Source: Escherichia phage OLB35. From it: a DNA stretch of 64,000 bases. The translations under genes were made by a program, and so were the position numbers. The stretch lies in the sequence record MH992122.1; one strand, given 5' to 3'. Shown here piece after piece: positions 2,520 to 40,677 of this stretch (within the stretch, counting starts at the first letter, position 1; the number at the start of each line of letters is the position of its first letter). Under the pieces are notes generated by a model, which did no database searches, had not been told where the DNA came from, and worked only from the letters and a program-made list of their open reading frames with translations.

Positions 2520-3620
2520 TTACGCTGTGAAGATTTTATCCCACATCGCAACAACTGCATCTCGGTTATACTTCTTCCATACTGCTTCAGCACGTTTAAC
2601 TCGAGCTTCGTATGTGTCAGTGAATTCTAATACAGCTTTTGTGTAAAGCGCAACTACTTCTTTCTTAGGAGTAGAGGAATCAATTTCTACACGCACAGTA
2701 TCTGGGTCGTATTCGAATGTCGCATGAGGATAATCCTTAAAAACTAACTGAATTACAGGGACACCTTTAGAGATGGCTTCAATAGAACTATTCTCTACCG
2801 TACCCGTGTCAGGACACGTATTGATAAGTGCTTTAGCTGTTTTAAGACGTTCCATGATTTCACTGTGTGGAGCATCAATAATAACAGGATACTTAGCCGG
2901 TGGTGCCCATTTACTAGGACAATAACCAATACCATTTTCGCCTAGTGCTTTAATCGCTTCAAGAGCAACATCAGTACGACGCATTTTAGTGTCATAACGT
3001 TGTGCACTAATAATCAGATCAGTCGCCGGAAGAATTTCAGGTTTCTCATTCAAACAAATAACCGGATAATCTTCAGCTTCAAACAACGGATTTGCTCGCC
3101 AATAATCATAATCAATTTTGTCAGTCAGACCTGAAGTCATATAACAATATTTGCGTTCAAATTCACGGAAGGCTTTAGTAGGAGCATAACTCTTACCACC
3201 GTTCTTATGAATTTGAATAGTCTGGTCCCAAATTTGAACAATGCCACGAGATACAGGTTCAAATGGTGTTGCCATAAAATTCTTATGAACTTTAGAAAGA
3301 CCTGCGTCTTTAATTGCCTGAACGGTTAGTTTGGTCGGTTCCATTGTAACAACGAAATCGTACTCATTAATGCCGGCTAGTTCAACAATCTTACGAGCCA
3401 TAGTATAACTCATACCTAGACTGAATTTAGTCAGATGACCAACAGGATGATGATTAACCTTCCAATCACCAAATGTGTCATTATCAAAGCCGATATAATC
3501 AATATCAGCACCGATGGACACAAGATATTTCAACACATTTAAATGTACTGCTTCAAGACCACCTTGTACACGTTCTGGGTTAAATGGGACTGCGCGAGAT
3601 GGGATAAACATAACTTTCAT
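2520..3620 (-). CDS. glycosyltransferase (GT-B/GT1-like), candidate DNA hmC glycosyl(arabinosyl)transferase
   Basis: 366-aa ORF; C-terminal ...TGTVENSSIEAISKGVPVI... resembles GT1 nucleotide-sugar binding motif; lies between rIIA.1 and 39 where T4 has gene 60/mobA. Confidence 0.55.
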   Translation of the reverse strand: MKVMFIPSRAVPFNPERVQGGLEAVHLNVLKYLVSIGADIDYIGFDNDTFGDWKVNHHPVGHLTKFSLGMSYTMARKIVELAGINEYDFVVTMEPTKLTVQAIKDAGLSKVHKNFMATPFEPVSRGIVQIWDQTIQIHKNGGKSYAPTKAFREFERKYCYMTSGLTDKIDYDYWRANPLFEAEDYPVICLNEKPEILPATDLIISAQRYDTKMRRTDVALEAIKALGENGIGYCPSKWAPPAKYPVIIDAPHSEIMERLKTAKALINTCPDTGTVENSSIEAISKGVPVIQLVFKDYPHATFEYDPDTVRVEIDSSTPKKEVVALYTKAVLEFTDTYEARVKRAEAVWKKYNRDAVVAMWDKIFTA

Positions 3621-3629
3621 AATTAAGCC

Positions 3630-3664
3630 TTATTAAAATTAAAATGAAGCTCCCGAAGGAGCTT
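3630..3664 (-). terminator. intrinsic terminator after gene 39
   Basis: hairpin aagctcc-cgaa-ggagctt (3647-3664), followed on minus-strand RNA by cauuuuaauuuu. Confidence 0.5.
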
Positions 3665-3678
3665 AGGACATCTATCAA

Positions 3679-5499
3679 TTAACCAAGCATCCAATCTTTA
3701 CGGAGTTCAGGGTCGTTACCCATGAGCATTTCAAAGAGTTCTTTCCAATTTTCAGGAAGTTTAACTACGTCGTACACAGGGTTCTGAATCATTTCTTTAT
3801 ATTCATCCCGCTGAAGTGAGCCCAATCCCTTTATGTATCGAATACTATGCTTAGGCAGTGTATCTTTAACTTCTTCATACTCAGCTACAGTATAAAACCA
3901 TTTTTGAGTTTTACCAATTTGTGCAATAATTACAGGCGTTTTAACAAAGCGAATACGTCCTTGTTCAAACAATTCAGGCCAATTACTAAAGAAAGCAAGC
4001 AAAGCCGGATAGATACTTCCAAGGCCGTCATGATCGGCATCGGTCATAATTGCAATATTACGATAGTTCGTATTCTCTGCTTTTTCACCAAGAATAAGAC
4101 CCGTGATAGCACAGATATCAAAGAGCTCTTTGTTCTTCATCATATCAGCATATGACATACCCCAGCTATTCATCACCTTACCACGTAATGGGAATCCACC
4201 GTGTAGTTCACGGTCACGAACATCAATGAGATATCCAATTGCCGAATCACCTTCTGTTAAGAACAATGTCGTATCTGCATCTTTACCACATTGGTTAGCT
4301 TTAATATGCTTATGAACCTTAGCTTTAGTTGCCTTTTTAGCTGCTTTAGTTTCTGCAGCCTTTTCTGCTGCCAATTTACGAGCTAATGCTGCTTCAACAA
4401 TAGGCATAATCAAGGCTTCGTTTTTAAGAAGTGCCTGAGCAATTTTCTTAGCATCTAATTGGATATGATTACGAATATCACCATATGTTGACGTTAAACG
4501 TTCTTTAGTCTGAGAATCAAAACGCATGTTGCTCATGTCTCTAATAAACATCAACATTGTGAGACATTCTTTAACACGAGCTTTAGTGACTTCAATACCC
4601 TTATATTTCTTTTTAATACCCGGCAAAAGATGTTCGCAGATATCGTCCATTACACATTCAACATGATGTCCACCGTTTTTAGTATGGATGTTATTCACAT
4701 AAGTTAAATGACGGAAGCCATCTGGTGATGTTGTGAATGCTATAGAGACTTTATCATTTTCTTGAATGATGTTATCTTCACCAAATTGTTTAGCAAATCG
4801 TTTAAAATTGCCATCAACCTTTTTACCATTAAATGTGAACTTGATATCAGGATAAACGACTGCCAATGTTTGAAGTCGGTCTAAAGTAATATCTAAATAA
4901 ATTTGAGATAAATTATGCTCTTCAAATGAAGTGAAATCAGGAGTGAAGATTACTTTAGTGCCTTTACCTTTAGATTTCTTAGAAGACCATGATTTGTTTT
5001 CCATTCCGTTTGAACAGTTAACAGTGATTTCATTTTCGCCATCTGACGTGATGCCTGTAAACAACGTAGAGAAGATATTAGTTAAACTACTCCCGACGCC
5101 GTTCATACCACCAGTCTTGCGTTCAGAGTCATCGCCAAAGTTACCACCGGCCTTTGGAATAGTCCAGGCTGCTACAGGCCCAGGAATTTGTTCACCTGTT
5201 TGGTCGGTAACTAAACCTTGAGGAATACCACGTCCGTTATCTTCCACCGAAACTTGATTATTTTTAATTTGCACATCAATTTTATTTGCAAACTTAAACG
5301 ATGTACGAATAGCTTCATCAACCGAGTTGTCAATAATCTCATCGATTAATTTAACCAGACCAGGAACATATTCAACTTGTTGATATTTACCAAACAAAAA
5401 ACGCTCGTGGGCTTCTTTAGCAGAAGAACCAATATACATACCACTACGTTTCTTAATATGTTCTACATCTGACAATACCTTAATTTCATTTTTAATCAT
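3679..5499 (-). CDS. 39: DNA topoisomerase II large subunit, gp39 fused with gp60 region
   Basis: 606-aa ORF; MIKNEIKVLSDVEHIKKRSGMYIGSS... near-identical to T4 gp39; single continuous ORF of fused 39+60 length. Confidence 0.95.
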   Translation of the reverse strand: MIKNEIKVLSDVEHIKKRSGMYIGSSAKEAHERFLFGKYQQVEYVPGLVKLIDEIIDNSVDEAIRTSFKFANKIDVQIKNNQVSVEDNGRGIPQGLVTDQTGEQIPGPVAAWTIPKAGGNFGDDSERKTGGMNGVGSSLTNIFSTLFTGITSDGENEITVNCSNGMENKSWSSKKSKGKGTKVIFTPDFTSFEEHNLSQIYLDITLDRLQTLAVVYPDIKFTFNGKKVDGNFKRFAKQFGEDNIIQENDKVSIAFTTSPDGFRHLTYVNNIHTKNGGHHVECVMDDICEHLLPGIKKKYKGIEVTKARVKECLTMLMFIRDMSNMRFDSQTKERLTSTYGDIRNHIQLDAKKIAQALLKNEALIMPIVEAALARKLAAEKAAETKAAKKATKAKVHKHIKANQCGKDADTTLFLTEGDSAIGYLIDVRDRELHGGFPLRGKVMNSWGMSYADMMKNKELFDICAITGLILGEKAENTNYRNIAIMTDADHDGLGSIYPALLAFFSNWPELFEQGRIRFVKTPVIIAQIGKTQKWFYTVAEYEEVKDTLPKHSIRYIKGLGSLQRDEYKEMIQNPVYDVVKLPENWKELFEMLMGNDPELRKDWMLG

Positions 5500-11298: not shown

Positions 11299-11443
11299 AA
11301 TTAACCTTTAATCAGTTGGAATAATGATGCGCTAAGTGGTAGGCCACGTTTCAATTTTAATTTACCAATGAAACCAATCTTTTCAAAACGTTGCAGACCT
11401 TGGATAACTTTATCATATGTATCGAAAAGCGATTCAGCGTCAG

Positions 11444-12049
11444 TTAATTTAGTTTTAGTTTTCCAGTCAGAGCCTTTAAAAGAAGAACGTTGAGTTTAGT
11501 AAGTTCATGTCCTTCCGCTTGATGTGAGCCGTTAATGCGTGCTTTCAAAGCAACAATTCTAAGTTTAGATTCGTTAGATAAAGGTTGATTTTTCATCATG
11601 TTCGCCATATGCTTAACACGATTTTCACGTTTTGCTCGGATTTTTAAAATAGTACCATAAACCTTTTTGATTTGGGCCCATTTCTTCTCGTCGAGATTAA
11701 GTTTCTCTACTTTACGGGCAGAAGGATTAGCGATACGTCTTGCAATGGCATCACGTTTCTCAATAAGTTCTTCTAATGTTAAATCAGAACGAGCCGTGTT
11801 ATATTTTTTCTTAACTGGGATAACATTACCTTTAATGTAGCCGATATTGTTATCAAAACGTTCTAAGGATAATTTCTCACCTTCAACAGAGTTATTGAAA
11901 GATTCACCTGAGTAAGCGCAGACCTTTTGATCAAGAATGTTTTTAAGGTAGTTAAAGTCTAAGTTAAAATCCTTAGAGCGTCTCTTCGCAGAAGCTCTGG
12001 TGTGGTCAAGACGACGATTTATTTTGTTAATTTTATTATTTGATAACAT
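11444..12049 (-). CDS. hypothetical protein in srd position
   Basis: 201-aa ORF between dda.1 and modA-like gene; own early promoter upstream; identity with T4 Srd not verified. Confidence 0.45.
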   Translation of the reverse strand: MLSNNKINKINRRLDHTRASAKRRSKDFNLDFNYLKNILDQKVCAYSGESFNNSVEGEKLSLERFDNNIGYIKGNVIPVKKKYNTARSDLTLEELIEKRDAIARRIANPSARKVEKLNLDEKKWAQIKKVYGTILKIRAKRENRVKHMANMMKNQPLSNESKLRIVALKARINGSHQAEGHELTKLNVLLLKALTGKLKLN

Positions 12050-12098
12050 AATATTTTCCTCTGTCTTACGGACGTTAGGTCATTTGGCTGATAGGTCT

Positions 12099-12127
12099 AT
12101 AATATCATGCCCTCAGGTAGTGTACAC
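12099..12127 (-). promoter_or_regulatory. T4-type early promoter
   Basis: -35 GTGTAC (12122-12127), 17-bp spacer, -10 TATTAT (12099-12104), motif gataggtctataat. Confidence 0.45.
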
Positions 12128-12201
12128 TCTTTTTTCATAAAATGCTTTAATTTTTTATGTGTTATAATGGTTCTGAGTTCCATCCGGTTATTCCAATCCA
12201 G

Positions 12202-12810
12202 TCAGTAACCGACAATAGACAGATTCCAGATTGTATAACGTCCATCTTGAATAATAGAATCTACACGCAGTGTAGTCCCTATAGGGAGCATAAATTCGCA
12301 TTCGTCAGATATAAGTCTAGCATTAGACCGTCTTGTAGCTTCAGGGAAAGCTCCATTGAACTCACAAGATGGCGCAGCCAGAATCATGTTAAGCATATGT
12401 TCACGGAAGTTGAAAGCAAATGGTGCATCTTTGATGCAGAACATATTAAATGTTCCATAAAAATTATATGAAGCGAAGTTACGTGCTACACCGAACACTG
12501 GACTAAAGCTCATTACTCTATCAAATTTAATAATACTACCAACATCTTTATCGTCGAGTGTGGCCATAGTTTTCTTAGAGATTCCACGATACATTGTCTC
12601 AGGAACAGAAGACGTCCAATTTCTACGAACAATTGCACTTAAATCTTGTTGGATGCTATCAGGCTTGTTTTCCATACACTGCCATAGTACACTTTGTTCA
12701 ATGTCGCTGAATTGCTCATCGATTTTGTACTGAAGCATATCTTGATAATCTGGGCATTGAGCACGACGAACCATTTCTTCAATTTCACACTCGTTATACG
12801 GCATAAACAT
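12202..12810 (-). CDS. modA: ADP-ribosyltransferase, ModA-like
   Basis: 202-aa ORF with R-S-E ART motifs (..YRG.., ..SFS.., ..ECEF..); T4 synteny after srd position. Confidence 0.65.
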   Translation of the reverse strand: MFMPYNECEIEEMVRRAQCPDYQDMLQYKIDEQFSDIEQSVLWQCMENKPDSIQQDLSAIVRRNWTSSVPETMYRGISKKTMATLDDKDVGSIIKFDRVMSFSPVFGVARNFASYNFYGTFNMFCIKDAPFAFNFREHMLNMILAAPSCEFNGAFPEATRRSNARLISDECEFMLPIGTTLRVDSIIQDGRYTIWNLSIVGY

Positions 12811-12867
12811 TTAGGTTTCTCCTGTGGTTGATAAAGGTATAGTATCATCATCGGAAGAGTTTGTACA

Positions 12868-13449
12868 CTAAAAATTCAACATTTTTAAATGAATGATTTT
12901 GTATAACCGAGATAAAGGGTCATATTCTAAGTCTTCAATTTCTACAATCTCAAATCTAGAGATACCTGAGACCATGTATTCTTGTTCAGATTCAATCATA
13001 TCTAGGACGTCAACACGTTTTTCTTCCATAACATGCTTAGGGTTCTTTCCGGCGAGTACAATGTTAACCATGTTTTGGTAGTAATCGAAAATGAACGGAG
13101 CATTCCTGAGACTAAGAATAGTGTACGTCTGATATTCCCAACTCCCAGAGAACTGTCTGGCCGTACCAAAGTCTGTTGTAAACGATGTTACTCGTCCAGG
13201 AGACCAATGGCATCCAACAGAAAGAAGGGAAAGACGTTCTACTTCTTCTGGAGTTACACCACGGTAGAGTTCTACTGGTACTGTAGAAGTCATATGCTTA
13301 CGAACAAGACGGTCTAATTCATAGTGGAAATCTGGGTCTTCCTTAGAATCAGTGCAAGCCCAGAGAATGTTTTGTTCTTGGCGGGTGAATTTGCTATCAA
13401 TCAGATTTGTTAGGTATTCGCGTTCTTGAAGTTCAGATTGACATGTCAT
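12868..13449 (-). CDS. modB: ADP-ribosyltransferase, ModB-like
   Basis: 193-aa ORF with ..YRG.., ..SFTT.., ..EQEY.. motifs; paralog of neighbouring gene. Confidence 0.65.
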   Translation of the reverse strand: MTCQSELQEREYLTNLIDSKFTRQEQNILWACTDSKEDPDFHYELDRLVRKHMTSTVPVELYRGVTPEEVERLSLLSVGCHWSPGRVTSFTTDFGTARQFSGSWEYQTYTILSLRNAPFIFDYYQNMVNIVLAGKNPKHVMEEKRVDVLDMIESEQEYMVSGISRFEIVEIEDLEYDPLSRLYKIIHLKMLNF

Positions 13450-13665
13450 GATAGACCTCCATTTAAAGATAAGCCTATCATAACACGAGAGGAGGGAATG
13501 TAAACTACTTTTTAAGCTTTCCTACTAAAGGACCATCTGGGCCAGGTTGTTCTAACATGAATAAGGACGCTTTAAAAAGCAATGTCAACCCTTTCACCAT
13601 TCGATACCATGTCTCAAAGTCTTTTTCCTTGATTTCTAGTAAGAATTTCTCTTTAAATTTCTCTT

Positions 13666-13854
13666 TCATTTCCAAGGACTCCATGGTGGAGGGTCGTCAT
13701 AATAAGAGGCAAGGTCTTTCAGGGCTTCAACAGGTAAACTAAAGCCGTGTCGTTGTATAATACTATCTAGTTCATCAACAAGTTCACTACGATGCACTTT
13801 AGGAGCCTTGACTTCAGGCTCATCAAACATACTCATAAGGTCCATATTATTCAC
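13666..13854 (-). CDS. hypothetical small acidic protein
   Basis: 62-aa ORF, operon context. Confidence 0.35.
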   Translation of the reverse strand: MNNMDLMSMFDEPEVKAPKVHRSELVDELDSIIQRHGFSLPVEALKDLASYYDDPPPWSPWK

Positions 13855-19920: not shown

Positions 19921-20034
19921 ACACAGTATGTGGGGCTTGTAAACAGTTATTTTAAAATTATCGAAAATCTGCTTCGAAAACTTTCTCGTCATTAACAAAT
20001 GCTTTAACTAATGCTTTGTTCACTTCAGCAAGAT
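19921..20034. repeat. direct repeat copy 1 (orphan dmd 3' end + early promoter)
   Basis: about 114 bp, near-identical to 20069-20185; contains GTTTAC early-promoter -35. Confidence 0.85.
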
Positions 20035-20068
20035 CGAAAACAGCTTCGTCTTCATAGACGCTACAACC

Positions 20069-20185
20069 ACACAGTAGTATGTGGGGCTTGTAAACAGTTA
20101 TTTTAAAATTATCGAAAATCTGCTTCGAAAACTTTCTCGTCATTAACAAATGCTTTAACTAATGCTTTGTTCACTTCAGCAAGAT
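20069..20185. repeat. direct repeat copy 2 (genuine dmd 3' end + early promoter)
   Basis: second copy, separated from copy 1 by a 34-bp unique spacer. Confidence 0.85.
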
Positions 20186-20303
20186 TGTACCGTAACCCAC
20201 TCGATTTCTTCGCGATCACCTGATAACATGATAACACTTCTTTAGTGAACATCTCCCCGCTTTTAAACCAGCCGATAAAAGTCACTTTAGTTATAATGCT
20301 CAT
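20109..20303 (-). CDS. dmd: Dmd antitoxin (inhibitor of host RnlA/LsoA toxins)
   Basis: ORF 20109-20351 trimmed to ATG at 20301-20303; ...VTFIGWFKSGEMFTKEV...AEVNKALVKAFVNDEKVFEADFR resembles T4 Dmd. Confidence 0.7.
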   Translation of the reverse strand: MSIITKVTFIGWFKSGEMFTKEVLSCYQVIAKKSSGLRYNLAEVNKALVKAFVNDEKVFEADFR

Positions 20304-20304
20304 T

Positions 20305-20622
20305 TTAGATTTCCTCGCAAAATGCCCATTCAGCGTGATAAACTGTAGCACCTTTAGTATTATTCATTTGAACTACATCTACCGGAGAAATTACTCGATA
20401 GAGACGTGGTTCACCTCCATAAGAGCGTGCTGCTCGTCCTGCATAAATCTTTGCTAAACCGATATCTTCAGTAAAGAATACACGATCCAAGTTTTTCTTA
20501 CGTCCAGTTTCAGACAGAACTCCTGTTTCTTCAGGAGGACAAAGCATGTTTTCGATGTTAGCTGAACTACTTGAACCGTGATAAAAAATCTTAAATTTTG
20601 CTTTACAATCGATGGTTTTCAT
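20305..20622 (-). CDS. hypothetical protein
   Basis: 105-aa ORF with ATG; early promoter and hairpin upstream. Confidence 0.5.
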   Translation of the reverse strand: MKTIDCKAKFKIFYHGSSSSANIENMLCPPEETGVLSETGRKKNLDRVFFTEDIGLAKIYAGRAARSYGGEPRLYRVISPVDVVQMNNTKGATVYHAEWAFCEEI

Positions 20623-29933: not shown

Positions 29934-30194
29934 GTTGTGGTCCTCATTGGTAAGTAGGTGTATTGTACACTATTCTAGTTAAAGCATTCATACTTTGCTT
30001 GTAGTCCAATCATAATCCATCCGATTATAAGAGTCGGAATCATTACTGGAGCCGTTAAGCTCCAGTAGATAGTCATGACAAGCATCAATAGTAAAAGTCC
30101 TATTGTTATTGCTTTCATTGCTCGCCTCGTAACATGGCACCTAGTGCACCACCAGGGTGGAACTTAAGGAAGATCATTAGAGGTAAATCCACGT

Positions 30195-30753
30195 TCAGAT
30201 GAAAGGTTGATAGCGAACGTATCGATAAGCGCTAACAACAATGTAGTGGACATGGTCGGAGCTAAAGAGATTCTCGTCGACCTCTACCGCGATGCCTGTA
30301 CAGAAAGAGTAATCAAAAAGGGCTTCATTTTCTTGCGGAATGTCCGGGTTACAATGCAACAGAATCTGTTTAACCTGAGGACGAATCATACGAAGATGTT
30401 TAGCAACACCTATCATTTCTTCGGTCTTACCAGAACGACTAATATGAATCAACACATCATTAGGCGCAATGAATCCTGCATCACCATGAGAATAATGCCC
30501 GGTGTTCAAATACATGCTAGGAATACCCAATGAAGCAAAATGTCTCGGAAGCTTTAGTTGCGATATTAGCGTTCTTACCGACACCTGTAATAATTACACG
30601 ACTTTCATAATTGCTCAGTCCTGGGCGACGAAGAGTTTCAAGAATAGCATTATATCGGGCAGGGTTTTTACTAATTACTTTAGCCATAGTAGCCAAAGAA
30701 GAAGCTTGTTTTACGATTGCGTCAATAGCGATAGTGATTGGTGTAGTTTTCAT
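30195..30753 (-). CDS. SIS-domain sugar-phosphate isomerase (GmhA/KdsD-like), frame broken at a homopolymer
   Basis: ORFs 30517-30753 (...ITGVGKNANIATKASETF) and 30195-30584 (...ASLGIPS...HGDAGFIAPNDVLIHISRSGKTEE) join into one SIS domain if one T is removed from the run at 30537-30540. Confidence 0.65.
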
Positions 30754-30793: not shown

Positions 30794-33531
30794 TCAAAAA
30801 TCAAACATATCGAACAGAGATGCTTTCTTCTCGTAATCGAGTTTAGCTGCTGTTGTGAATCCTTCAAGTGGTTTAATAAATGTCTTCTCAAGGAGAACAG
30901 TATAGTCCATCCAATGAAGTACATCATCTTTGATTAAATCGGTGATTTCCGTACCAGAAGGCCATGCGATACATTTATCACCGAACGGGTTTCCATCACG
31001 TAAAGGCAGAACATATACTTTTTCACCTTCTACAACTTGTGGAGCATCAATATTACCTTTGATAGCTCGGTTATATGTCAGAATTCCACGAATATGGAAC
31101 GGACATTTAGGACCAGGGAATCCACCAACGTCATATTTAGCAATGTTATTCGCAGAAGATACCGCCGCGATGCTAATATAATTCAATTGACGGAATTCTT
31201 TTTCAAACTCTTTAAAATATTCTTGTAATGATTCTTCACCTTCTTGAAGCATACGACGAATACATTCTTTAAGAGCTTTCTGTACTGCTTTAGGGGTCGA
31301 AGATTTCTGAGTCTCTAGACCCATGATTTTGAGTTTAGGCTCAGCGTATCTGGTTCCTTCCATATCCCACACGTTTAATGCATAACGTTTCTTACCAGTC
31401 CAGAATCCACCAATACCTTTAGAACCGAGCGGAGGACCAGCGATAGCTTCTCGGTCCATGAACATTAAGTGTTGTTTATTGTTCATGTATTCGCACATTT
31501 CACGGAAACCTCTATCAATAGCCGGTTCCATACGTTCACGTGCAAACTTATCTAAGAAGTCTACCCAATGGTTGGTATCACGGAATTTAGATTCACCGAC
31601 CTTATCAATAATTTTATCAGCAGATACGTAAATAGAGTCTGTATCACCGTAAAGAACGAAAGCTTCACCTTCTGTACCACAAACTTCGTTCAGATATTCA
31701 TTAACTTTACGTTCAATCCACTGTAAAGCCATTTGCCCAAATGTTGTGATTGCAGTAGCATTACGCAAATCATAATAACGGAACCAAACGTTGCCAAGTG
31801 CACCATAAAGCGAGTTGATGAGCAATTTACGGTTAATTTGTGCAGTCATACCTGCAACTTCAGTACGTTGAGCTCTAAACAACATTTCATTAAGAGATTT
31901 AGCAGACAACTTTTTAATCTTTTCTTTAATCTCATCGCTGAAGTCGAAACGATAATCAACATCTAATGGTTCGTCAACAGAAAGATTAGGATTATGTAAG
32001 GCTTCTTTAATTATTTCACCATTACGTTGAGCTGCAAGCATGTAACCTTTATGTTCTTTACGTTGATTAAAGACCTTAGTGATTTCAGTTGGAACTACAC
32101 CATCACGGTCTTTATAATACATCATGCCGTTAGGAGAGCAACTGTACACATCTGAAGGACGTTCAGCGATTGCGTTAATATAATCATGCAATGGAGCTAC
32201 TTTAAACGTTCCTGCTATTGTTTCTGGGCTAATATTCACTTGGCGAATAATACTTGGATACAGAGATGTAAGGTCGAAACTCATTACATATTTGTATCGA
32301 TTTGGAATAGGTTCCTTAACAAAAGCGCCAGGATAAGGTTGAACCTGGTGAGAACGACCTTGTGGAATCACCTTGTTCTGCTCTTTAAGGCTATTAAAAA
32401 TAATAACATCCCATGTTTTAATTGGGCTAAACACAGATTGAATCTGTATCTTAGCATAATAACCCATGTCCAAACTCAAGTTTATGAACTGGCGTTTAGC
32501 ATCAATTTGCAATACACGATACACGTCGATAATGTTATAAGAAATATATCGTTGGTGATTACTTTCACGAAGTTTAGAAATAGGACCGTCATATTTCAGT
32601 TTACCGACATTCAATTCAAATTCTGAAATGTAATCCAGAGAATACGACGGTTGGTTTGTGAAAGAGAATTTTTTGTAAAGGTCGATATAATCAAGAACAG
32701 AGATACCGAACAATGTAATGATTTCACGAGAACCGTACATGTTTTCAATAACTTTAACACGAGTCTTGCGATACTGCAAAAACCTAGATCATTGTCGGGT
32801 GGTGATAAACGTTTCGCAGTAGATTCGCCAAAAATATTCTTGATTCGGTTATACACATATGGAATATCAAATGACTCAACGTTCCATCCAGTCAAAATGA
32901 CAGGAGTTTTCTGTTGCCAGAAGTTGAGATATTCCATCAACAATTCTTTTTCGTTATCAAACGGCATATAAATGATTTTATCAATAATTTCGGATGGAAC
33001 TTCATCACCACCTTGTTCTTGAAGCTTAGCAGCGATTTCAATAGACCATTCTTCTACATTACCATATGGAGAATTCAATAGATCAAATACGTAGAACCTG
33101 TCGTCAATTGAGTCATAATGGGTGATAGCATCAATCGGATGTTTTGCTTGTGACGGCTCAGGGAACCCATCCGGAGATGTTACTTCGATGTCGAAGTTAG
33201 CCACACGAATTTTTGTATGGTCGTATTTGATTTCATAGTTATAAGTGTCAGACAAATACGCCAATTTGAAATCGTCCATACCTAATGCTTCAAGACCAAT
33301 ATCTTCCATGCGTTTAATCCATTGGGAGGCATCACGCATATTAGCGAACAACTTACGAGTACACGGCTTACCGTAGATATCGAAATATTTAGTAGCCTGA
33401 CTTTCTGGACAATGAGCAAACAATGATGGTTTATATTCTACTTCACGAGTACGTTCACGGCCATTAGAATCGATGTAACGTTCAAAAATTGAATCACCAA
33501 TCTGTTCAACCGTTAAGTAAAATTCTTTCAT
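30794..33531 (-). CDS. 43: DNA polymerase gp43 (family B), two overlapping frames
   Basis: ORF 32611-33531 (MKEFYLTVEQIGDSIFERYIDSNGRERTREVEY..., RB69-type N-terminus) and ORF 30794-32779 (...NMYGSREIITLFGISVLDY...YGDTDS...); frame break near 32771-32799. Confidence 0.9.
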
Positions 33532-39156: not shown

Positions 39157-40172
39157 TGTGTTGCCTCAATATAAAGTTCGTTGGAATATTTGACCAGCGC
39201 TTCTCTGTCTTCGTCTGAGATATCCGGAATCGCGTCAATATATTCTTTAATGATATCTTGAAGTGATTTAATCTCGATTTCCTGGTCGTCATCAGATTCA
39301 ACACTGTTATCAACTTTAGAAACCATACGAAGAGAGTGAACTACTTTTTCAAGTTCAGATTCAAACTTAGTCAACTCTGAATCAATTTCTGATACTATAA
39401 CACGTACGGCTAGATTAGTATAATCAGAATAATTAATTTTGCCTTTAAACGGATAAGTGATTCGTCGATGCCATGTCGTTTCATTGGGAATAAATTCCAT
39501 ACGTTCAACAACAGTGTCAAATACCCAGAATCCTCGCGGATCGTTCTCATCACCTGCAGTAAGGGTCCATGGTGTCCCAATATATTTGACGTTAGCAGCT
39601 TCAGAGATTGTGTGGAAGTGGCCAGACCAGACTTGTTTATAGGTCTTTAAGAAATCAGGTTCAAGCCCATGAGACTTCATTCCTTTATAGAAATAAAAGC
39701 CGTTCAGTTCCCAGTGCCCAACACAGTACGCTGCGGAAGAAGTCTTGATGTGCTCTAAGATTTCACCTGTATTTTCTTCACACATCCACGGAACGATATC
39801 GATCAGACATCCGTCAAAATCTACAGTAGTTGGATGTTCGTAAATAGTAAAGTTTTCAAATTGAGTTAACAATTCAGAAACAGTGTTAGGTGTTATTGTA
39901 TTCTTAAACGCCATGTCATGGTTTCCTATCGTGACATGAACGTGAATGCCTGCCTTAGAAATCATATCAACTATTTCACGATTGAATTCCATCGTACGAT
40001 GTGTAATTGCTTTACGGACGTCAAACCAATCACCGTACTGAATCCAAGTTTTAATACCGTGTTTCTTAGAGTATTCAATTGCTTGACGAATACCATCACG
40101 TTGAATATCTTGAACCCATGGGTCGTCCTGTTTAACGCCGATATGGAAGTCACCTAAATGTAAAATTTTCAT
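39153..40172 (-). CDS. 47: recombination endonuclease subunit gp47 (Mre11/SbcD-like)
   Basis: ORF trimmed to ATG at 40170-40172 (MKILHLGDFHIG...), 339 aa as in T4. Confidence 0.95.
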   Translation of the reverse strand: MKILHLGDFHIGVKQDDPWVQDIQRDGIRQAIEYSKKHGIKTWIQYGDWFDVRKAITHRTMEFNREIVDMISKAGIHVHVTIGNHDMAFKNTITPNTVSELLTQFENFTIYEHPTTVDFDGCLIDIVPWMCEENTGEILEHIKTSSAAYCVGHWELNGFYFYKGMKSHGLEPDFLKTYKQVWSGHFHTISEAANVKYIGTPWTLTAGDENDPRGFWVFDTVVERMEFIPNETTWHRRITYPFKGKINYSDYTNLAVRVIVSEIDSELTKFESELEKVVHSLRMVSKVDNSVESDDDQEIEIKSLQDIIKEYIDAIPDISDEDREALVKYSNELYIEATQ

Positions 40173-40233
40173 AAGTCTAACGCCGTTATCGCGATGCAAA
40201 TTAAAACCACAGAAATAAATAAAAAAGGAAGCA

Positions 40234-40443
40234 CTAGGCTTCCTTTCCAATTAATACACCGTACAGAGGCTCATTTGAACTTTTAAATCGAATTGGCTTG
40301 TACGTAATAGTTCCTTCGGCTTTAGCTTTATCATAAGACTCTTTAAAACGTCTCATTCTTTCTGCTTTGCCTTTACGGATTTTATCGAAATTTTCAGAAG
40401 TCGGGATGTTCGTCATGCATAAGCACCTCTCAGAAAAAGCCAC
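40234..40443 (-). CDS. hypothetical small protein
   Basis: 69-aa ORF; occupies the region where T4 has alpha-gt. Confidence 0.4.
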   Translation of the reverse strand: MAFSERCLCMTNIPTSENFDKIRKGKAERMRRFKESYDKAKAEGTITYKPIRFKSSNEPLYGVLIGKEA

Positions 40444-40455
40444 CTGTCCACGTTA

Positions 40456-40677
40456 TCATCGTTTCCACCATTTCTTAACTTGAAATGAATCAACCCACAC
40501 GAGTTGTTTTGGGTCTGCCTTTACAATAGGCGGACAAATTTCTGTAATAGAACCGTCGTGATATTCCTTTTCAGAAATTTTAACACAAAGAGGACCTCCC
40601 AATTTAAGGGTGAACCCTGCGTTCAAATTCAGACGTTTAAACTTTGTTTGAAGTAGTGCCATTAATGATGTCCTCAA
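40456..40677 (-). CDS. hypothetical small protein
   Basis: 73-aa ORF. Confidence 0.4.
   Translation of the reverse strand: MRTSLMALLQTKFKRLNLNAGFTLKLGGPLCVKISEKEYHDGSITEICPPIVKADPKQLVWVDSFQVKKWWKR

Follow-up and report, generated by a model that had tools for sequence, protein, structure and literature searches.

In bacteriophage T4, the essential replication gene 60 is interrupted by a short non-coding insert, a 50-nt gap with in-frame stops and a local hairpin, which is bypassed during translation. The bypass relies on GGA codons that serve for both take-off and landing at a distance of 47 nt, together with a stop codon in the A-site, a take-off stem-loop and a signal in the nascent peptide (PMC5009743). 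In the thymidine kinase gene of HSV, a +/-1 change in a run of seven G shifts the reading frame, and only inefficient slippage on the homopolymer yields active protein. These so-called savior indels are selected by drugs and are recurrent (PMC5009743). A T4-family polymerase laid out in two frames or cistrons is found in Acinetobacter phages such as Ac42 and vB_AbaM_PhT2, where the genes are called gp43A and gp43B. This split follows ~residue 500, is conserved within the clade and is annotated as two genes. Ac42, vB_AbaM_PhT2, Acj9, ZZ1 and many metagenomic relatives carry a gp43A of ~502 aa that is annotated as 'split DNA polymerase'. Finally, ectopic or templated insertions (filler DNA) consist of bases copied from elsewhere in the same genome. 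Templated mutations normally arise via flanking homology between donor and recipient, and Schultz and Drake reportedly described, in 2008, templated mutagenesis in T4 from imperfect repeats.

Here, we compare these systems with gene 43 of Escherichia phage OLB35, which was analysed within a window of 64,000 nucleotides (the whole stretch of DNA under study). The window stems from an RB69-like (Mosigvirus) T-even phage and shows ~98% identity to Escherichia phages CCU7 and CAU_ECP01. Gene 43 is preceded upstream by regA, 62, 44 and 45 and followed downstream by a gene for a SIS-domain isomerase. Its features are as follows:

30794-33531, minus strand: gene 43 (DNA polymerase, gp43), split into two frames
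32611..33531, minus strand: N-terminal ORF of gene 43, reading ...ESTAKRLSP and then, out of frame, PDNDLGFCSIARLV... to a TGA
32611-32613, minus strand: this TGA, the first stop for the N-terminal frame, giving a product of 306 aa, the last 62 residues of which are a nonsense tail
32799..33531, minus strand: first 733 nt of gene 43, codons 1-244 and base 1 of His245
32773-32798, minus strand: 26-nt insertion within codon His245, CCGACAATGATCTAGGTTTTTGCAGT in gene sense
32778-32782, minus strand: T5 (U5) run within the insertion, A5 on the plus strand and the only homopolymer of the insert
32789-32791, minus strand: TGA in the C-terminal frame, brought by the insert, which shuts this frame upstream
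30794..32779, minus strand: C-terminal ORF of gene 43, in the other frame, reading (L)QYRKTRVKVIENMYGS...
30794..32772, minus strand: last 1979 nt of gene 43, starting with bases 2-3 of His245 and including the stop, in a differing frame as written
32772..32821, minus strand: imperfect hairpin, formed by GUUUUUGCAGUA from the 3' part of the insert and by UACUGCGAAAC upstream

The first 244 residues of gp43 share 100% protein identity with the relatives and with RB69 polymerase chains in the PDB, that is, with the crystallised RB69 enzyme. The earlier note was right to name the interrupted gene as that of gp43. The conserved continuation of the protein, (Q)YRKTRVKVIENMYGS..., lies in a different frame from the N-terminal ORF. 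Every relative examined has an uninterrupted gene 43 of 903 aa, and hence the split-frame pattern is no chance arrangement of ORFs. The earlier note had placed two ORFs in different frames with a break at 32771-32799, which agrees with the ORF layout and with an insert at 32773-32798, and the A5 it reported on the plus strand is present. It had further described a frame break at a T5 run: the location is right, but the lesion is an insertion of 26 nt, to which the T5 run itself belongs.

The placement of the insert is unambiguous, as alignment with CCU7 puts it between C and AT of codon His245 in the conserved SPHRKTRVK. Indels catalogued against 14 loci (CAU_ECP01, CCU7, RB69 and eleven more) show the 26 extra nucleotides to be the sole cause of the frame break. 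They are private to OLB35 in comparison with all relatives covering the site (12/12), and the alignment to RB69 gene 43 that the earlier note had asked for shows RB69 without them. Deleting the 26 nt in silico gives a 2712-nt ORF with one terminal stop that encodes a normal polymerase of 903 aa. As written, however, gene 43 is a null allele with a truncated product of 306 aa and no credible start for the remainder.

The insert occurs once within the OLB35 window, and it is absent from ~154 related phage records as well as from 14 loci checked base by base at the junction, RB69 and the closest relatives included. Beyond these, scans of IMG/VR contigs, JGI metagenomes, GTDB genomes and 5,426 E. 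coli genomes gave no occurrence of the 26-mer, and a 21-mer at the left junction is not found in metagenomes. A search for siblings with the insert via the neighbouring proteins found none. Both exact truncated products are missing from a collection of 15 billion proteins, and no homologue retrieved with the 306-aa ORF as query reaches into the out-of-frame tail. Searches for short peptides among proteins are uninformative, as their built-in control, with flanks identical to known gp43, was likewise unmatched. A scan of viral_contigs with IUPAC patterns for gene-37 alleles missed even the common allele, so that this collection carries no information on them.

A short BLAST search with the insert alone matches ~70 Mosigvirus genomes, each at a single place and with 24/26 positions, in gene 37, the gene for the distal subunit of the long tail fibre. 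The donor was read in the closest relatives (OLB35's own gene 37, with the corresponding stretch expected near codon 755 of the distal subunit, lies outside the 64-kb window): in CAU_ECP01 and CCU7 it reads g/CCGACAATGgTCTAGGTTTTTaCAGT/TATGTT and encodes G-A-D-N-G-L-G-F-Y-S-Y-V. In all, 101 phage records contain the donor segment, which is ordinary conserved coding sequence. Since a match of at least 24/26 anywhere in one 169-kb genome has a chance expectation of ~2e-7, the insert is misplaced phage DNA rather than an evolved signal. Thus, the inserted bases are traceable, via the gene 37 of the relatives, to another locus of the same genome, as in ectopic self-derived insertions. The copy lies in the sense orientation of both genes, has the same codon phase in gene 43 as in gene 37 and preserves the codon phase at its left junction. 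In contrast to templated mutations, which normally draw on homology flanking donor and recipient, neither junction shows microhomology or flanking similarity to the donor, no recipient bases were lost, and the donor lies ~41 kb away on the opposite strand. Such a blunt ectopic patch from gene 37 is an unusual type of mutation or artefact. The two transitions that distinguish the insert from gene 37 occur in none of the 101 known gene-37 alleles. The next base of the donor is T, followed by AT, so that a 27-nt copy would be in frame and would share a 2-nt AT microhomology at the right junction; this junction reads GCAGTATCGC as deposited and GCAGTTAT with the donor's additional T.

Other sources of the insert were considered and rejected. 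A host origin finds no match in the 5,426 E. coli genomes, and contamination by adapter or primer is at odds with the match to phage gene 37. A transposon or MITE would not fit a single copy in the window that has neither terminal inverted repeats nor a target-site duplication. An intron, intein or other mobile element was dismissed likewise, with no Rfam family, no direct or terminal inverted repeats and a length of 26 nt, much too short for an intron. Since the flanks do not match, templating by flanking homology was rejected too, as was snap-back copying of the upstream inverted repeat.

The site of insertion is highly conserved. Residues S243 and P244 are invariant, and in 19 to 31 homologues, the most distant with only 35-37% identity, the stretch from LSP to the beta-hairpin is free of indels; the site is thus intolerant in nature. 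In the AlphaFold model of a homologue with 76% identity (local pLDDT ~95), the insertion point falls into a 5-residue coil that leads from a helix to the first strand of the exonuclease beta-hairpin. This hairpin comprises residues 251-262 in RB69, and deletions of the hairpin loop in RB69 and T4 are viable mutators (PMC6153641). Apart from the break, gene 43 is under purifying selection: its private substitutions comprise 14 synonymous and 3 non-synonymous changes, which indicates a functional gene along essentially all of the history of the lineage. Hence, the break is either recent or not real.

The insert is open in the incoming frame, where frame 0 reads P-D-N-D-L-G-F-C-S. As the earlier note had worked out, the two frames would be joined if the T5 run had one more T, with nine additional residues before the exonuclease beta-hairpin. 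The fusion reads SP-PDNDLGFLQY-RKTRVK, in a polymerase of 912 aa. The rescued gp43 would carry PDNDLGFLQY in place of His245, directly before the proofreading beta-hairpin. If the extra T were instead placed at the right junction, the product would read SP-PDNDLGFCSY-RKTRVK. The calculated tryptic peptide is LSPPDNDLGFLQYR for the product of a -1 slip or of a T6 run, LSPPDNDLGFCSYR if the right junction has the additional T, and LSPHR for the wild type; the gp43 with LSPPDNDLGFLQYR would be ~105 kDa.

Translation of a functional gp43 from the deposited sequence requires a net -1 shift within a 16-nt rescue window, which extends from the TGA at 32789-32791 to codon R246. The only repeat in these 16 nt is U5, and the only hop between identical codons is UUU to UUU at -1. 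Along this route, peptidyl-tRNA-Phe on UUU (GGU UUU UGC) re-pairs one base back, after which UUG CAG UAU CGC is read. The U5 run is in the right register for slippage of a single tRNA in the P-site, with only A GGU UUU U available, and the 16-nt rescue window holds no heptamer of the type X XXY YYZ. The sole canonical heptamer, A AAA AAT at 32668-32674, lies 98 nt downstream, and a shift there loses ~36 conserved residues. A stimulatory structure 5-9 nt downstream is likewise lacking: the 87 nt downstream have a minimum free energy of -10.5 kcal/mol, while shuffled sequences average -13.95, so that the fold is weaker than expected (z = +1.39). No suitably spaced Shine-Dalgarno sequence precedes U5, no Rfam family matches at the insert, and no relative carries the insert, so a -1 site conserved as programmed sites are is not seen. 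A programmed -1 frameshift site of the dnaX, IS or viral type was therefore rejected on heptamer, stimulator and conservation alike.

None of the defining features of T4 gene 60 is found at OLB35 gene 43. All pairs of identical codons were enumerated and none is usable for a hop of this type, in keeping with the earlier note, which had seen no take-off and landing pair. The only pairs that keep R246 onward are the overlapping UUU/UUU, which amounts to the -1 slip, and those with upstream TTT, TAT or TCT codons, from which take-off would delete conserved residues. No stop directly follows a candidate take-off codon, the first frame-0 stop being codon 307 (32611-32613), 159 nt past the insert. 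A take-off stem-loop is also missing: the hairpin that involves the insert contains no candidate take-off codon, and with its 10-nt arms of 90% complementarity it is not statistically distinctive (z = -1.7 for a 121-nt context). There is no dedicated nascent-peptide signal, as the upstream peptide is the same as in relatives that lack the insert. In contrast to HSV thymidine kinase, OLB35 carries a 26-nt foreign patch with only a U5 run, no known selective benefit and a single occurrence. The Acinetobacter arrangement differs as well, since the break in OLB35 lies at 244/245 and is unique. Re-initiation as in a split polymerase could use only one start, TTG at 32779, which has a poorly spaced AGG 3 nt upstream. 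Nothing in the analysis supports a new recoding system.

The break in gene 43 is probably a singleton, non-programmed lesion or an error in the sequence. A stretch of 26 nt would have been copied from the phage's own gene 37, with blunt junctions, into codon His245. With no dedicated device for decoding it, either the deposited sequence would be wrong or the genome would be unable to replicate unaided. If wrong, the whole patch might be an artefact, or one T might be missing from a real in-frame insertion of 27 nt. If unable to replicate unaided, OLB35 as deposited might be a recent lethal mutant kept in a mixed stock. The insertion with its exact borders, its gene-37 origin, its uniqueness and the lack of recoding signals are shown by the sequences, and we infer an error or a dead end rather than an element that is decoded. 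The singleton insert, its gene-37 origin, the lack of a recoding apparatus, the intolerant site, the purifying selection and the presence of other broken genes all argue for this, and the gene-37 origin together with two more privately broken genes (see below) moves weight away from programmed recoding. Several observations argue against it. A clean patch of 26 nt from ~41 kb away, without microhomology or loss of recipient bases, is not explained by any ordinary artefact of assembly. The patch is sense-oriented, in the codon phase of the donor and open in the incoming frame, its sole homopolymer falls exactly into the 16 nt in which a -1 shift or an extra T would rescue the gene, and a 27-nt copy would be in frame with a 2-nt microhomology. 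Moreover, the insertion point lies in a coil next to a beta-hairpin whose deletions are viable mutators (PMC6153641). Two mismatches to all 101 gene-37 alleles would also be unexpected for a fresh and faithful self-copy, an objection that lapses if OLB35's own gene 37 carries those bases. Within the probability of a lesion or error, a minor share falls to a real 27-nt insertion in frame (with T6 or a donor-like right junction) combined with a 1-nt miscall, which we list apart since its biological outcome differs. Comparison of the donor ...CAGT/TAT G with the recipient /AT CGC shows that one T more would restore the frame and provide the AT microhomology; the codon phase is kept at the left junction, and the other private insertions of 1-2 nt in genes fit an imperfect consensus. 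Yet, a 27-nt insertion needs a chance error within a 27-nt target, and this error would have to be a deletion, whereas the other private indels in the window are all insertions. The donor itself has T5, and no homologue tolerates added length at this site.

As the main rival reading, the insertion might be real and the phage viable, with some ribosomes slipping by -1 on U5 in the manner of a savior indel and thereby producing the 912-aa polymerase. We consider this unlikely. In its favour, the 16-nt rescue window has no repeat other than U5, which is in the right register, the added residues would sit in a coil linker where nearby mutations of the beta-hairpin are tolerated as mutators (PMC6153641), HSV thymidine kinase sets a precedent for the rescue of a viral gene by homopolymer frameshifting (PMC5009743), and gene 43 is otherwise intact and constrained. 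However, a tandem-slippery heptamer, a downstream structure (z = +1.4), a spaced Shine-Dalgarno sequence and conservation are all wanting, and it is unlikely that a genotype dependent on background-level efficiency would come to dominate a stock. The efficiency of an unassisted -1 shift is expected to be at background level, probably 1% or less, and U5 is too short for appreciable transcriptional slippage. Gene 43 of T4 is translationally autoregulated, which could partly offset a low yield under corrective slippage. That the phage is viable exactly as written, with the self-derived patch decoded by unassisted -1 slippage on its own U5, is a somewhat more doubtful proposition still. Most improbable of all is bypassing of the gene-60 type, excision of the 26 nt at the RNA level or a two-subunit polymerase with a C-terminal fragment initiated at TTG 32779. 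T4 gene 60 does show that short non-coding inserts can be hopped (PMC5009743), Acinetobacter T4-like phages do have a natural gp43A/gp43B, and a weak hairpin involves the insert. Nevertheless, no matched codon pair brackets the insert, none of the candidate take-off codons is followed by a stop, and Rfam gives no match; the natural splits lie after ~residue 500 in separate cistrons, whereas the break at 244 is inside the exonuclease domain, and the TTG is poorly served by its AGG while the N-terminal fragment would bear a 62-residue nonsense tail. The options given in the earlier note, namely an assembly error, an insertion with a compensating change or recoding, are all still live.

If the break is a lesion or an error, as we favour, its significance is mainly one of quality control, and the annotation of gene 43 should show neither two genes nor a recoding site. 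If the phage were viable as written, an essential gene for replication would be sustained by corrective frameshifting without dedicated signals, which is rare in nature. It would also provide a natural insertion beside the beta-hairpin that serves proofreading in the best-studied family-B polymerase, with consequences for fidelity. The altered gp43 could then be a mutator, which would explain the excess of private small insertions in this lineage (in the SIS and Srd genes).

These insertions emerged from a scan in which 123 ORFs of relatives were compared with the OLB35 window, which revealed two broken genes besides gene 43:

30118-30753, minus strand: gene for a SIS-domain arabinose-5-phosphate isomerase, in four frame pieces, with private 1-nt insertions at 30173, 30269 and ~30540
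11304-12049, minus strand: gene for an Srd-like anti-sigma factor, with a private 2-nt (AA) insertion at 11478-11479 that shifts the last 59 codons

The isomerase gene is intact in all 152 relatives (211 aa). It has only five private substitutions (3 synonymous, 2 non-synonymous) and is either a decaying pseudogene or the site of local consensus errors. The Srd-like protein has 248 aa in the relatives, and all 156 related records are without the AA insertion. Both genes are non-essential and could be true pseudogenes. In total, the window contains five private frame-breaking events, all of them insertions, and no ambiguous bases, while the comparison of CCU7 with CAU_ECP01 shows zero broken ORFs over 50 kb. 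With three genes broken within 64 kb, including an indispensable one, there is less reason to trust the record or to regard the genome as viable. Split genes occur in deposited relatives as well: RB69 (AY303349) has an NTP-transferase split into 221 + 346 aa at 12030-13716, and OR544954 has gp46 split into 506 + 32 aa at 3404-5003. Such cases provide a baseline for frame breaks in public Mosigvirus records.

Further differences from the relatives were noted in the window. At the 3' end of gene 39 (3676-3694, minus strand), a 19-nt difference from CAU_ECP01 changes the C-terminus of the topoisomerase from KEWMS to KDWMLG, each followed by the stop. This apparent 19-nt insertion was rejected as a second element of the same kind, being a natural allele of the gp39 C-terminus shared with other phages. 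Gene 39 of OLB35 is intact and unsplit, encodes 606 aa without a gene-60 hop, and its exact protein is found in other phages. In phage p000v, a NUMOD3 homing-endonuclease gene directly follows the same gene 39 allele, which may therefore mark a junction with a homing endonuclease or the scar of one. Finally, clusters of small private indels (1-5 nt) at 19960-20310 and 40170-40460, around the dmd region and downstream of gene 47, fall into short, poorly conserved ORF or intergenic stretches and are probably ordinary hypervariable segments.
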